Source: Escherichia coli (GTDB lineage Bacteria; Pseudomonadota; Gammaproteobacteria; Enterobacterales; Enterobacteriaceae). Taken from it: DNA of 6,386 bases. Every line of letters starts with the position of its first letter. Positions within the stretch are counted from its first letter, which is position 1. Of the stretch, positions 1 through 6,386 are shown one piece after another. Both the position numbers and the translations under genes were made by a program. The notes beneath the pieces were generated by a model. It saw only the letters and a program-made list of their open reading frames with translations. It made no database searches and was not told where the DNA came from. The stretch lies in the NCBI RefSeq assembly GCF_003334305.1, contig NZ_QOWS01000049.1; one strand, 5' to 3'.

Positions 1-62
1 AATCGGTGGAGCTGCATGACAAAGTCATCGGGCATTATCTGAACATAAAACACTATCAATAA
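1..62 (+). CDS. insB: IS1 transposase InsB, C-terminal fragment (5' part lies outside the window)
   Basis: The frame starting at nt 3 reads SVELHDKVIGHYLNIKHYQ followed by TAA at 60-62, which matches the InsB C-terminus as I recall it. Confidence 0.7.
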   Translation, partial: SVELHDKVIGHYLNIKHYQ

Positions 63-77
63 GTTGGAGTCATTACC
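1..77 (+). mobile_element. IS1 insertion sequence, right end only (element continues upstream of the window)
   Basis: Nt 1-77 match, from my memory of IS1, the last ~77 bp of the element in canonical orientation (AATCGGTGGAGCTGCATGACAAAGTCATCGGGCATTATCTGAACATAAAACACTATCAATAAGTTGGAGTCATTACC), ending with the right terminal inverted repeat at 55-77. Not verified by search. Confidence 0.85.
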
Positions 78-735
78 GTGCACGGTAACGGGCCATATCA
101 ATGAGCAGTTCCTCTCCAATTTTATTTGCCCCTAGAGAGCGGCGAGTTTTCTTCACTTCAATGACAATCTTCTCTTTCTTCAGAAGAAAATCCTGTCTGG
201 ATGATGAACCTGCGAAGCTAGGTGAATTTTCTTCAGGTCTGACATCATTAAAATGCAGCAGCAGAAGAGCATGAACAAGATCCTGTACATCATACTCGTC
301 ATTAATTTCAAGCGGCGTTCTGTCATTGTATCGTTGCTTTAATTGACGACAAAAAGCTGGAAATTTATTGAGTATATTTATAATCAAATCCAGTTCGGCA
401 TGTTTTGTTGCTATAGTCGATGCCGTGCCGGAGTAAGTTAAATCGTCTCTGGCTGCATCAAAAATAGGTTTGTAATGTCTAACCAATCCCTGATAATTAC
501 TAGACCAAGCAATCCTTTGTGTATCATTAAAATCTTTGTAGTAATCAGATTCCTTTCCATAACTGTCTTCAAGTAACTTTTTTGCTCTTGCAATCCAGTT
601 ATTACCTTTAGCCGAATCAATATATTCCTGGCTTCTGTGACTAAATGCACTTGTTCCCATATATTTTGTCGACATGACAGAATTGTACTCTTGTTCAAGC
701 ACTTCAAATCTTTCAGCTAAGGTCTTCTTCGTCAT
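73..735 (-). CDS. Hypothetical protein with a C-terminal PD-(D/E)xK-like nuclease motif; 3' end created by the IS1 junction, so probably truncated
   Basis: ORF track frame 73..747 (-). Position 747 is a TTG; the first ATG is at 735 (MTKKTLAERFE...), giving about 220 aa. The C-terminal region reads EYDVQDLVHALLLLHF ... SSSRQDFLLKKEKIVIEVKK: an acidic helix, a D in a hydrophobic strand, then E-V-K 11 residues later, the arrangement expected for a PD-(D/E)xK core (motif-level inference only). The last sense codon and the TAA stop (73-75) overlap the IS1 terminus, which ends at 77. Confidence 0.55.
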   Translation of the reverse strand: MTKKTLAERFEVLEQEYNSVMSTKYMGTSAFSHRSQEYIDSAKGNNWIARAKKLLEDSYGKESDYYKDFNDTQRIAWSSNYQGLVRHYKPIFDAARDDLTYSGTASTIATKHAELDLIINILNKFPAFCRQLKQRYNDRTPLEINDEYDVQDLVHALLLLHFNDVRPEENSPSFAGSSSRQDFLLKKEKIVIEVKKTRRSLGANKIGEELLIDMARYRAR

Positions 736-811: not shown

Positions 812-837
812 TTGGACATTCAGGTAATTTCGTCCAG
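812..837. repeat. Dyad-symmetric motif copy 1 (TTGGACATTCAGGTAATTTCGTCCAG)
   Basis: Inverted repeat TGGAC (813-817) / GTCCA (832-836) around a 14-bp spacer. It is homologous to the copies at 1710, 2259 and 5447. It lies in the divergent promoter region between the 73..735 ORF and the 905..1099 ORF. Confidence 0.6.
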
Positions 838-904: not shown

Positions 905-1099
905 ATGAACGTCAAGAACATGTTTTACGGTGCCATTCTGGTAAGTGCTGTATGGGCGGTTATTTTGCTCTCATGGTTTGAATCCAGCCTTACCTTAAGC
1001 GATTACCTCAGGTACGAATCGGTAATCCTGATCCCATGCCTGCTGTGGGTTGCTGTTTATGGGTTAGGTAAACGTTACCTCCAAAGAACATCAAACTAG
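905..1099 (+). CDS. Small hypothetical membrane protein (64 aa, two predicted TM helices)
   Basis: ORF track frame. It has two hydrophobic stretches (FYGAILVSAVWAVILLSWF and VILIPCLLWVAVYGL) and a basic C-terminus, and is preceded by the extended -10 promoter and a GGTGG Shine-Dalgarno-like sequence. Confidence 0.5.
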   Translation: MNVKNMFYGAILVSAVWAVILLSWFESSLTLSDYLRYESVILIPCLLWVAVYGLGKRYLQRTSN

Positions 1100-1174: not shown

Positions 1175-1654
1175 CTACTGGCTTGCTGTGCCAAACTTTC
1201 CGTTGCAGATTTCCTCATTCACAATGGCCTGAAACATGGAAACAGAATTTCTAGCCTTATCCCTCAGTGCATTAATGAGTTCTGTGTCGTGTATTTTGTT
1301 GTAGAAAATGAAAGTAGAAACATCAAACTGGAGTTTAAATGCTGCTTTCCTTATGGCTAAACCTGACGTGATCGTTATCTCATTATGTATGCGAAGATAG
1401 GCAAGATAATCATCGTTATTTGCTTCACACTGCTCATATAAATATTTTTGCATGAGAGATTGAGACAAGGCCAGAAATTCCACATATCGTTTGGTTTTTA
1501 TTTCTTTATCTTTTAATCCCTGTACTGCCGCTTCTTTTTTTAATTCGTGCTTTTGTGTTAGCTTAAGAGTCAGCCACCCCCCTAAAATAGTCAGCAACGA
1601 CCCCAAACCTATTTTTACGGCATTATCAGCCACATCCACCCACTCAGTCGCCAT
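1175..1654 (-). CDS. Hypothetical protein with an N-terminal membrane anchor (159 aa)
   Basis: ORF track frame. It has one N-terminal hydrophobic helix (VKIGLGSLLTILGGWLTLKL) followed by a charged, probably helical soluble region. No family recognised. Confidence 0.5.
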   Translation of the reverse strand: MATEWVDVADNAVKIGLGSLLTILGGWLTLKLTQKHELKKEAAVQGLKDKEIKTKRYVEFLALSQSLMQKYLYEQCEANNDDYLAYLRIHNEITITSGLAIRKAAFKLQFDVSTFIFYNKIHDTELINALRDKARNSVSMFQAIVNEEICNGKFGTASQ

Positions 1655-1771: not shown

Positions 1772-2221
1772 ATGGTTAAATTTCCAGGTGAAGTTATGAG
1801 TTCGTCCGCTGCTGTAACCGTTATAACTGGTGTTCTTGTTTTTGTTGGTGGTCAGCTCATTGTAAAGAGCGCGATTGAACCTTATATAGAATTCAAGAAA
1901 CAATTGGGAAAAATATCAAATCTGCTATTAGCTAACCAAGCTAAATTAGCTAATCCTTGTGCTGTTGAAATGTCTGAGATCATCCATGAGTTGAAAGATG
2001 CCGCAGCTCAGTTAATGTCGAAGCATTCAGCTTTGCCTTTCTATATCAAAAAATTCCATATCGGATTCCGCTTTGTTCCATCAACGCCTGAAATTATTAG
2101 TTCGGCGCAAAAATTGAATTTGATAGCATCAATACATGAAGGTAAAAGCAAGGAAAGTACATATGAGCACATAGCCGAGATTGGACGTATGCTCAAAATC
2201 CCAACCACCTATTCTCTTTAA
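1772..2221 (+). CDS. Hypothetical protein with an N-terminal membrane anchor (149 aa)
   Basis: ORF track frame. It has an N-terminal hydrophobic helix (AAVTVITGVLVFVGGQLIV) and a soluble C-terminal region. An alternative start at the ATG at 1796 is preceded by AGGTGA. It is followed by the bidirectional terminator at 2278-2304. Confidence 0.5.
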   Translation: MVKFPGEVMSSSAAVTVITGVLVFVGGQLIVKSAIEPYIEFKKQLGKISNLLLANQAKLANPCAVEMSEIIHELKDAAAQLMSKHSALPFYIKKFHIGFRFVPSTPEIISSAQKLNLIASIHEGKSKESTYEHIAEIGRMLKIPTTYSL

Positions 2222-2393: not shown

Positions 2394-2429
2394 CGCCTTT
2401 AACGCCTTTAACGCCTTTAACGCCTTTAA
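2394..2429. repeat. Perfect tandem repeat, 4 copies of the 9-bp unit CGCCTTTAA
   Basis: Direct reading: the unit CGCCTTTAA occurs at 2394, 2403, 2412 and 2421, followed by G6. It occupies the -35/upstream position of the sRNA candidate promoter at 2365-2370. Confidence 0.9.
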
Positions 2430-2798
2430 GGGGGGAAGATAGAGCAACTCACCGATGATGAATAAAGTGGACGAAGAGACGATAACTACACTCCCATCCA
2501 GGGGGGGGCTTTTTTTGTGGTACTGTAGTGTGGGAGTAAGTTCGGGTCTCATATTGAATGAGGCGATTGCGAGCTGCCTTTCATCGAAAACTAATGTCCA
2601 TTGTCATTGTATTGTCTGACTCTATCTCGTAACAAGTCTTTGACACAAAGTTTTATATTTTTATCAAAGTGGACATGAGGGGAATTAAATTTGTGATCTT
2701 TTTCAAATAATGTGTTCTTGATAGTAGATTCTGGTTAGTGATATCTATTAACAATATATTAAATTTCTTTTGTATTATCGCTGATAAAACTACTGTAT

Positions 2799-2837: not shown

Positions 2838-4340
2838 ATGAAGAAATTTTATCAATTTAGGGATGAACAGCGAAAGGAGCTTGAACAACATGATTTTTAT
2901 AGTTTGATTTCTTCAGATTGTATAGCGTTGAAAGACAAACTATTATTTGCTCCTGTTATGGCTCATTTCATAATGAACTTCAGAGACATGAATAAATGGG
3001 TTATCAGGTTTGATAACAATGATAATGAATATAAATCTGTTATAAACGGTGGAACAATCGAGGATGAAACACATTCAAGATTGTTTCTGGAAGACTGGAG
3101 GAAACTATATATAGATGACAAACTTAACTGGAAAGCAAGTGATGTTATATACTGGTTGTTTATTAGTCGAGAAATGGAGTGTTTCCGAAAATTTGGTATT
3201 GATTTTATGAGACTTTGTGTAGATGATGGAGGAGACCCAATACTTCGATATTCTCACTCCGAGTCAGGAGAAACTTGCGGTAATATATTCTTTTCAAGAA
3301 TTAGTCCTATTGCTGATCAAGTTGCCAATCATTTGGGAATATCACTCCGTTATTTTGGAACATTTCACCTTAATCTTGAAAATGGACATGTATGGAAGTC
3401 AGAAGGTGTTTTTGAAAATATAGAGTTGTCACCAGATTCTTATAAGAAAATGGCTACTCTATCAAAGAGAATGTTTGATATATTTGAAGGAATTCATGAC
3501 TCTTTTTATAATTACCTGTCCAGTTATGTTCTTAATGGAAGTCATCCGTCATTTTTTGAATCATTACCTGTAGGGAAAAATGTTGCACCTATATACCCTG
3601 AATTTGTGATAGAAAACAAAAGCCATAACGATGGTAGACATATTGAACATATAAACAATTACCTGGAAAAAATATCGAGTCATGAGTTCTTTAAATGGCT
3701 GGTTAACACCTCAATAGACCCTCAATTGAAATTGAAAAGTTTCATACCTCTTTGGATTGTTGATATTATGGGGTATAGAGATATTAATAAATATGTTTTT
3801 ACATATGAACAGCCTGAATCAGAAAGTGAAAAGATTATAAATGATTATGCATTACACTTGTCAGAGCATAGCCGTTTATTTTATCATGACTGGAAGTCAC
3901 TTCAACTTGATGATATGTTACGTTGGAGTGCCAGTGATACTCTTGAGTTTATTTTTCTTAATTCAGATATGGATATGCATAGAGAAAATATAGTTAAGTT
4001 TTCTTTGTTCGGATTAAAACACAGAGATCCTGTTATCAGGTTCTGGTTTATGATGATACTGGAGTTAAGTGGAAAAGAATTTTTCTCTCATGTTGGAGAT
4101 ATAGCTTTACAGGTGGAAAGTAAATATAATATTTATCTCCCATATTTATGTGGACGCCATGCAACAGAAAATGAGCATGAAGCATATAATAATATGTATG
4201 AGCATTTTATGGTAAAGGAACTTAGCCCTGAACAAAGTGATCTAATAATACAAATTACAGACATGGTTATGCGGTCATTATTGAATAATTTGGATATCTC
4301 ATATCGATATGTAGTAAATAATTTATTGGCAGCTCGTTAG
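2838..4340 (+). CDS. Hypothetical 500-aa protein made of two homologous ~220-aa halves; function unknown
   Basis: Long ORF with a strong AGGAG Shine-Dalgarno site, its own AT-rich promoter region and its own terminator. The two halves share ETHSRLFLEDWRKLYIDDKLNWKASD versus EHSRLFYHDWKSLQLDDMLRWSASD, FRDMNKWV versus YRDINKYV, and a later ELSP motif. No signal peptide or TM helix is apparent. Codon usage is strongly AT-biased compared with the flanking sequence. Confidence 0.8.
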   Translation: MKKFYQFRDEQRKELEQHDFYSLISSDCIALKDKLLFAPVMAHFIMNFRDMNKWVIRFDNNDNEYKSVINGGTIEDETHSRLFLEDWRKLYIDDKLNWKASDVIYWLFISREMECFRKFGIDFMRLCVDDGGDPILRYSHSESGETCGNIFFSRISPIADQVANHLGISLRYFGTFHLNLENGHVWKSEGVFENIELSPDSYKKMATLSKRMFDIFEGIHDSFYNYLSSYVLNGSHPSFFESLPVGKNVAPIYPEFVIENKSHNDGRHIEHINNYLEKISSHEFFKWLVNTSIDPQLKLKSFIPLWIVDIMGYRDINKYVFTYEQPESESEKIINDYALHLSEHSRLFYHDWKSLQLDDMLRWSASDTLEFIFLNSDMDMHRENIVKFSLFGLKHRDPVIRFWFMMILELSGKEFFSHVGDIALQVESKYNIYLPYLCGRHATENEHEAYNNMYEHFMVKELSPEQSDLIIQITDMVMRSLLNNLDISYRYVVNNLLAAR

Positions 4341-4645: not shown

Positions 4646-4726
4646 CATCGACCGCAACAAAAAAACTGAAAGAGAAAGCCCCTCAAATGAGGGAGAAAAA
4701 AAGGAAGTGCAGTCAACGAGAGGCGT

Positions 4727-4814
4727 AAAAAACCCGACTGGTGAGGTCGGGTTTTAATACGGTTCCGGTTCTGAGTTGGTGGCTCTGACCGGAGGAAGTC
4801 ACTCTACACCTAAC
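4727..4814 (-). ncRNA. Candidate antisense small RNA (type I antitoxin-like), divergent from the 31-aa peptide gene
   Basis: Minus-strand promoter: TTGCAA (4844-4849), 17-bp spacer, TAAAAT (plus-strand 4821-4826). The predicted start is near 4814. The terminator is stem CCCGAC (4733-4738) / GTCGGG (4746-4751) with loop TGGTGAG and a U6 run on the minus strand. The first 24 nt (complement of 4791-4814) pair with plus-strand 5026-5049 in the peptide mRNA leader (23 Watson-Crick pairs plus one G-U). Confidence 0.5.
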
Positions 4815-5125: not shown

Positions 5126-5221
5126 ATGATTAATCTGTTAATCATCGTTCTCAGGGCTGTGGTCGCCGTTGCAAACGCGCTGATTGCAATTCTGGAACTG
5201 ATTCGCCAGTTCATCGACTGA
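5126..5221 (+). CDS. 31-aa hydrophobic peptide, type I toxin-like (MINLLIIVLRAVVAVANALIAILELIRQFID)
   Basis: ATG at 5126 with GGAG 6 nt upstream. An in-frame stop lies upstream at 5096-5098, so this is the first possible start. The peptide has one predicted TM helix and a charged C-terminus. A near-identical paralog is at 6044..6139. It is not in the ORF track, which lists only the antisense frame 4909..5214. Confidence 0.6.
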   Translation: MINLLIIVLRAVVAVANALIAILELIRQFID

Positions 5222-5446: not shown

Positions 5447-5472
5447 CTGGACATACAGGTTATTCTGTCCAT
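5447..5472. repeat. Dyad-symmetric motif copy 4 (CTGGACATACAGGTTATTCTGTCCAT)
   Basis: TGGACA (5449-5454) / TGTCCA (5466-5471), with an inner dyad ACCTG ... CAGGT. It lies in the spacer between the two peptide units. Confidence 0.6.
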
Positions 5473-6043: not shown

Positions 6044-6139
6044 ATGATTAACCTGTTAATCATCATTCTCAGGGATGTGGTCGCCGTTGCAAACGCGCGG
6101 ATTGCAGTTCTGGAACTGATTCGCCAGTTCATCGTTTGA
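6044..6139 (+). CDS. Second copy of the 31-aa peptide (MINLLIIILRDVVAVANARIAVLELIRQFIV), possibly degenerate
   Basis: ATG at 6044 with a weaker ribosome-binding site (AAGAG). It differs from copy 1 at 7 nt (V8I, A11D, L19R, I22V, D31V, one synonymous), and two of these put charged residues in the hydrophobic core. It lacks the sRNA, promoter and leader block present upstream of copy 1. Confidence 0.45.
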   Translation: MINLLIIILRDVVAVANARIAVLELIRQFIV

Positions 6140-6309: not shown

Positions 6310-6386
6310 GGTGATGCTGCCAACTTACTGATTTAGTGTATGATGGTGTTTTTGAGGTGCTCCAGTGGCTTCTGTTTCTATCAGCT
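6310..6386 (+). mobile_element. IS1 insertion sequence, left end (element continues beyond the window)
   Basis: GGTGATGCTGCCAACTTACTGATTTAGTGTATGATGGTGTTTTTGAGGTGCTCCAGTGGCTTCTGTTTCTATCAGCT matches the IS1 left inverted repeat and the insA 5' region as I recall them. It is in the same orientation as the IS1 fragment at 1-77. Confidence 0.9.
6365..6386 (+). CDS. insA: IS1 InsA, N-terminal fragment (GTG start; continues beyond the window)
   Basis: GTG GCT TCT GTT TCT ATC AGC translates to (M)ASVSIS, the InsA N-terminus as I recall it. Confidence 0.7.

Follow-up and report, generated by a model that had tools for sequence, protein, structure and literature searches.

An open reading frame on the minus strand of an Escherichia coli plasmid segment runs directly into an IS1 element, and its C-terminal third carries a motif of the PD-(D/E)xK nucleases. 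The question raised by this locus is whether the frame still encodes a nuclease or is what remains of one, and to what kind of protein it belongs. The frame was analyzed within a stretch of 6,386 nucleotides (contig NZ_QOWS01000049.1), called the window here, whose features are collected in Table 1. ColV/ColBM-type virulence plasmids of extraintestinal and avian pathogenic E. coli contain the window at 100% identity; one of them is pECOS88 (NC_011747.1), in which this segment has the sitABCD operon on one side and sopAB on the other. The whole segment is bracketed by two IS1A copies that point the same way, and this arrangement gives it the appearance of a composite transposon. The listing of open reading frames gives a longer form of the nuclease frame, starting from a TTG at 747. 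Because every homologue begins with MTKK, 735 was taken as the correct start.

Table 1. Positions of the features in the window, with the basis of each placement or a remark
Feature	Position	Strand	Basis or remark
IS1A right end (transposase CDS end and terminal inverted repeat)	1..77	+	pECOS88 RefSeq annotation; homology ending at base 78; sequence read directly
Truncated nuclease ORF, remnant of 263-aa protein	73..735	-	ATG 733-735; 219 native codons 79-735; hybrid Arg codon 76-78; TAA 73-75
Retained PD-(D/E)xK (PF18742) part, residues 136-219: helix 1, strands 1-3, helix 2	79..330	-	Pfam, AF2, alignment
E193-V194-K195 codons, invariant E-x-K	151..159	-	align with EcbAgaN E309/K311
D182 codon, invariant Asp, predicted to be catalytic	190..192	-	aligns with EcbAgaN D298
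E147 codon, invariant acidic residue of first core helix (DEYDVQD)	295..297	-	
N-terminal helical region, residues 1-135	331..735	-	AF2 secondary structure, Pfam scan, alignment
24-bp palindrome TGGACA-N12-TGTCCA, upstream boundary of nuclease cassette	813..836	+	about 80 bp upstream of nuclease start
All five 24-bp palindromes	813-836, 1148-1171, 1711-1734, 2260-2283, 5448-5471		same orientation; also in loci L002, L003 and L012-L016
64-aa ORF	905-1099	+	divergent from nuclease gene
159-aa ORF	1175-1654	-	N-terminal hydrophobic helices
149-aa ORF	1772-2221	+	N-terminal hydrophobic helices
Rfam AgrB antisense-sRNA matches	2271-2357, 4725-4813	-	46 and 64 bits
Tandem repeat of 9-bp unit	~2395-2432		intergenic
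500-aa ORF (WP_000715081.1)	2838-4340	+	
DinQ-like type I toxin genes (dqlB)	5126-5221, 6044-6139	+	annotated
Left end of second IS1A	~6310-6386		

The nuclease domain and its nearest relatives

The initial annotation had assigned a PD-(D/E)xK core to the C-terminal third from the strings EYDVQDLVHALLLLHF, RQDFLL and IVIEVKK. All three are present in the translation, and the spacing it described, an E-x-K following an Asp after 11 residues, is exactly that from D182 to E193. The similarity extends far beyond chance. The sole Pfam match of the window protein is PF18742 (REase_DpnII-MboI), with an E-value of 3.1e-33 and 114.9 bits; residues 118-219 align with positions 3-106 of the 150 in the model, so that the domain is visibly cut. 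The E-value reaches 5e-59 for the best relative, and this domain is carried by all of the 120 homologues listed. Three Aga_Helical-REase models of PADLOC, which represent an Argonaute-associated nuclease, were also matched, the best of them with E-values of 4e-23 for the fragment and 4e-29 for the intact protein. NCBIfam gave just a sub-threshold, meaningless match to OlsG (16 bits against a cut-off of 350). For the N-terminal part, where no recognizable motif had been reported, the Pfam scan agrees: residues 1-135 match no known family.

The AF2 model (pLDDT 81) shows the alpha-beta-beta-beta-alpha-beta core. E147 is in helix 1, D182 in strand 2, and E193-x-K195 in strand 3, which are the positions expected from the secondary structure of such nucleases. 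The pTM value of 0.55 comes from the uncertain relative orientation of the two domains. Among 23 homologues with identities down to 39%, D146-E147-Y148-D149-V150-Q151-D152, R166, E168-E169, R180, D182, E193, K195-K196-T197-R198, D213, and Y217 are invariant; the equivalent Asp, Glu, and Lys are again invariant in a second alignment, of 23 longer relatives. Both the predicted fold and the conservation of D182, E193, and K195 thus bear out the assignment, for which they had been proposed as checks. E147, D182, and E193-x-K195 would constitute the active site. The window family shares the core fold and the D...E-x-K residues with PF18742, a family of the PD-(D/E)xK clan. This Pfam entry defines a domain only; for the stand-alone 263-aa architecture it gives no function.

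The profile search against the PDB led to EcbAgaN (23wq), the nuclease of BPAN, a long-B Argonaute system of E. coli, with an E-value of 1.5e-4 and about 60 residues aligned (chain residues 258-320 of 390). Foldseek against the PDB gave weak E-values, the best being 6.7e-3. EcbAgaN is a dimeric, Mn2+-dependent, non-specific DNase that acts as an abortive-infection effector, and its D298A and E309A-K311A mutations abolish the Mn2+-dependent DNase activity (PMC10620215). As in the window family, a helical region is followed by a REase domain with D-EVK, and D298, E309, and K311 correspond to D182, E193, and K195, respectively. This homology suggests that the intact protein would be a divalent-metal-dependent DNase, and the same activity may be expected of the family. 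In its probable mode of action the nuclease most resembles bAgaN of BPAN, yet it is not a bAgaN. The bAgaN proteins have about 390 residues with a longer, non-matching N-terminus and are encoded beside a long-B Argonaute that activates them, whereas the members of the window family have 263 residues and no Argonaute neighbor. Of the two marks of BPAN, an adjacent long-B pAgo was not found in the window, on pECOS88, or in the other contexts examined, and similarity to bAgaN over its full length was not found either.

In many GenBank, RefSeq, and UniRef records this gene is named malate dehydrogenase. That the product is such an enzyme is practically inconceivable: the name is inherited from record to record, whereas no Ldh/Mdh or other dehydrogenase domain is detected with Pfam or NCBIfam and PF18742 is the only domain in the protein. 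Newer RefSeq entries have replaced the name. It is a propagated misannotation, wrong for the family, and should not be carried further.

Truncation at IS1 and the state of this copy

Intact homologues on IncX4 plasmids are 99-100% identical to the window protein. The intact copy on one of these plasmids (NZ_OW967979.1) shows 99.8% identity to the window over 1658 bp, and base 78 of the window is precisely where this identity breaks off. Directly beside this last native base, at 77, lies the end of the IS1 terminal repeat. Since the identity runs exactly to base 78, codons 1-219 are native. At codon 220, the junction creates a hybrid CGG (Arg), which retains the first base of the native His codon and takes its second and third bases from IS1. 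The frame is closed by codon 221, a TAA within the terminal repeat of IS1. The description of the frame as IS1-truncated therefore stands, down to the single base.

The intact homologues consist of 263 residues, and the 44 C-terminal ones are absent from the window copy. Comparison of the alignment with the AF2 elements indicates that strand 4, helix 3, and strand 5 were lost. The alignment further shows the loss of the near-invariant residues H220, C223, F229, Y231-D232-P233, N239-P240, G242, D246, and L247. The complete alpha-beta-beta-beta-alpha-beta core is not found in the window copy. Because core strands 4 and 5 and many near-invariant residues are removed, this copy is most likely non-functional and passively carried.

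No trace of the missing 3' end was found anywhere on the 133.9-kb pECOS88, at either the DNA or the protein level. In addition, the pECOS88 annotation places sitA on the far side of the IS1 at the nuclease end. Therefore, the event was an IS1-associated deletion or rearrangement, and not a simple insertion; in this ColV-type plasmid it cut the gene after codon 219, thereby removing core strands 4 and 5. Sister IncFIB/FIC (ColV) plasmids keep just residues 1-76, 1-135, or 1-177, and these remnants abut sitD, an enolase fragment, or IS1 together with iutA. In these plasmids, the nuclease gene has been shortened from the 3' side by nested IS1-associated deletions. Such a series is typical of neutral decay.

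It might be argued that the truncated 219-residue product is still functional, either as a weakened nuclease or through its N-terminal domain alone, acting as a decoy or regulator. The truncated protein still has the three motif residues and core strands 1 to 3, the frame is closed cleanly by the IS1-borne stop codon, and at least 77 complete E. coli genomes contain the 219-codon allele. But the loss of the fourth and fifth strands with so many near-invariant residues, and the nested shorter remnants of the sister plasmids, which fit neutral decay, make a functional product improbable. Clonal spread of ColV plasmids explains the frequency of the allele, and leaves a small probability for a residual function. 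No sigma-70-like promoter was detected upstream of the nuclease gene by a simple scan. RefSeq also calls the pECOS88 locus a pseudogene, under the description [quoted passage not shown]. The nuclease nature of this locus is thus already in the public annotation, and the earlier motif call is correct and careful, but it was made on an already annotated pseudogene.

Taken as a whole, the explanation preferred here is that window positions 73-735 are the inactivated remnant of a plasmid-borne, stand-alone nuclease with two domains; its probability is put at roughly 0.8. The intact protein of 263 residues would consist of a variable N-terminal helical domain (residues ~1-135) and a highly conserved C-terminal domain of the restriction-endonuclease fold (PF18742).

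The intact family and its genomic contexts

An exhaustive HMMER search yielded 2,781 clusters (50% identity) at E<=1e-3, 973 of which were at E<=1e-30. In the best 149 clusters, the nuclease domain has a median identity of 56% to the query, with a range of 48-79%. The N-terminal regions of 145 cluster representatives (mostly 100-145 residues) fell into 50 BLAST-linked groups, and only seven were directly detectable from the query. W47, F69, and a G60/S63 motif are conserved in this region, which is otherwise variable among the relatives. When 23 longer architectures were scanned with Pfam, nearly all of the N-terminal extensions were left unannotated, with one integrase fusion and one DUF5763 being found. 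The family thus joins a nuclease of the effector kind, under strong constraint, to an N-terminal module that diversifies rapidly. The N-terminal domain might gate or control the nuclease, or target it.

Some part of the gene is carried by 307 of the 5,426 complete E. coli genomes; of its 326 places in them, 323 are plasmid-borne. In 138 of the genomes, 80% or more of the gene is present, a count that includes the 83% allele of the window. Members were also found in Paenibacillus and many metagenomic lineages. A tblastn search of 50,697 phage genomes found nothing, and PHROGs contains a family of the same length (phrog_29450, E=4e-58) without a known function there. No paper on the stand-alone family, and none mentioning its protein accessions, was found in the literature searched.

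On IncX4 and IncX1 plasmids, the intact nuclease gene adjoins the plasmid resolvase and ParA. Homologues are located on a Klebsiella IncF plasmid, in a Pectobacterium integrative mobilizable element, in a Yersinia ruckeri filamentous prophage, and in a Paenibacillus region of many small ORFs on the same strand. In about ten contexts, including that of pECOS88, no Argonaute, methyltransferase, Detocs, or other conserved partner is adjacent. A 159-aa gene lies upstream of the nuclease gene in the IncX4 plasmid and in the Klebsiella IncF plasmid. Enterobacterial plasmids in which the two genes occur together include at least L002, L003, L012, L013, and L016. The 159-aa gene was considered as an obligate partner and rejected: it forms a separate cassette, it is absent elsewhere, and its divergence differs, with nucleotide identities of 95.8% versus 77.5% in the Klebsiella plasmid.

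These contexts bear on the idea that the protein is the effector of a partner sensor since lost or separated, namely the long-B Argonaute of BPAN or the two-component system of Detocs. The best PADLOC models are indeed those of the Argonaute-associated Helical-REase, and the PF18742 REase is listed as the effector domain in some Detocs phage-defence systems (bioRxiv 10.1101/2023.01.24.525353, Fig. S8 legend). However, the PADLOC match of the intact protein is confined to profile positions ~212-362 of 378, so that the N-terminal part of bAgaN, about 200 residues, is absent. In Detocs, this killing or degrading module is part of a fusion with a receiver domain, and its gene is accompanied by those of a sensor kinase and a phosphotransfer protein, whereas the window protein has none of these: Pfam detects no receiver domain, such neighbors are not present, and PADLOC gives no Detocs match. 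Furthermore, repeats on both sides set the gene off as a self-contained cassette, and none of the partners is present in the contexts above. A lost or separated partner is very unlikely on this evidence.

The Pfam name REase_DpnII-MboI might instead suggest an orphan Type II restriction enzyme of the DpnII/MboI kind, cleaving GATC and tolerated without a methylase because Dam methylates this site. The close homologues are mostly in Dam-positive Enterobacterales, and no methylase is adjacent in the contexts examined. R.DpnII and R.MboI (PF04556) are similar in size, have the PD-(D/E)xK fold, and contain a locally similar strand (RxDFxxK...IEV); the window family, unlike them, is without a cognate methylase. 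Nevertheless, the DpnII sequence matches PF04556 over the full model (E=3e-100) and not PF18742, and the window protein has no PF04556 match. The PF04556 match confirms the identity of the DpnII query. In hhalign, the family and DpnII gave a 19-column match with a probability of 1.2%, which is not significant; kinship to DpnII was rejected, in spite of the Pfam name, on this value and on the lack of cross-matches between PF04556 and PF18742. Members in Paenibacillus and metagenomic lineages do not fit a Dam-dependent enzyme, and the closest characterized relative is a non-specific DNase. The nuclease domain also keeps about 56% identity over hundreds of clusters, unlike the fast-diverging Type II enzymes. 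An orphan GATC-specific enzyme can thus be given very little credence, as little as a lost partner. The cleavage domains of the Type IIS enzymes FokI, BspD6I, and PaqCI and the CdiA-CT(EC869) toxin nucleases show no sequence-level relationship to the window family; in these proteins, the domains for DNA recognition or delivery are known, as is the partner, either a methylase or an immunity protein.

The intact nuclease is adjoined, in two IncX plasmids, by a cassette for the abortive-infection protein AbiD (L014 4881-5855 and L016 4915-5823; PADLOC E=3e-46 and 2e-59), and the accessory arrays of these plasmids seem to act as small defence islands. This adjacency suggests that the stand-alone two-domain nuclease is probably a single-gene conflict nuclease. 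The family would then represent a conflict or defence effector of mobile elements, a role to which the neighborhood and the analogy with known effectors point. Its action may be by abortive infection or by direct restriction. A more specific proposal is tentative, and somewhat doubtful at present: the intact protein by itself might constitute a system of immunity or exclusion carried by plasmids and other mobile elements, in which the N-terminal domain would sense an invader or the state of the cell and thereupon release a non-specific DNase, and the gene would spread as a palindrome-bounded cassette.

Palindrome-bounded cassettes and other features of the window

The palindrome TGGACA-N12-TGTCCA (24 bp) occurs in five intergenic copies in the window, all in one orientation, whereas 0.26 would be expected by chance. 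On the 134-kb pECOS88, good copies are located in the window region only. In plasmids of the IncX1, IncX4, and IncF types, the same palindromes lie between single genes, namely the nuclease, AbiD, dqlB, the 500-aa ORF, and the 159-aa ORF. Intact nuclease genes have one palindrome upstream and a second one starting 13 bp after the stop codon. When plasmids are compared with each other, homology switches exactly at the palindromes. For example, the window and the IncX4 plasmid differ by 3.7 kb, and the third and fifth copies of Table 1 mark the limits of this difference.

The palindromes look like sites bound by a dimeric protein, and they may be recombination sites or operators. Folded sites resembling attC were considered and rejected, as RNAalifold gave no consensus structure for 25 sites and sequence changes in the palindrome arms do not compensate for one another. 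The palindrome sequence is printed in no paper within the literature searched.

Several other features were observed in the window. The two AgrB matches and the two dqlB genes do not correspond one to one: the first AgrB match has no adjacent dqlB, and the second dqlB has no above-threshold AgrB match nearby. Just downstream of the first AgrB-like element, there is an intergenic tandem repeat with a unit of 9 bp (CTTTAACGC) in about four copies. The 500-aa ORF has no match in Pfam, NCBIfam, or PADLOC; a CDS of the same length (1503 nt), likened to it by length alone, is located beside dqlB and the nuclease gene in the IncX1 plasmid (L015 5706-7208). The 159-aa and 149-aa ORFs have no family match. 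The 64-aa ORF has two predicted hydrophobic segments, a TATAAT-like box upstream, and a hairpin with a T-run downstream. It occupies a palindrome-bounded cassette of its own, and is conserved in the IncX4 plasmid, where it is unannotated.

The window locus itself matters little, being a pseudogene in decay on a ColV virulence plasmid that has been well studied. Among the side observations, the 24-bp palindromes around single-gene cassettes stand out most, and the arrays of such cassettes may merit a study of their own. The intact family is large, with thousands of clusters at 50% identity, and almost wholly plasmid-borne in E. coli. Its architecture, a variable N-terminus on an unusually conserved nuclease, is that of a single-gene defence effector, and the family would be a cheap candidate for screens of defence or plasmid competition. 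If the tentative proposal of immunity by a single protein is true, this gene would travel in the shuffling accessory arrays of IncX and IncF plasmids together with AbiD, DinQ-like toxins, and genes of unknown function.
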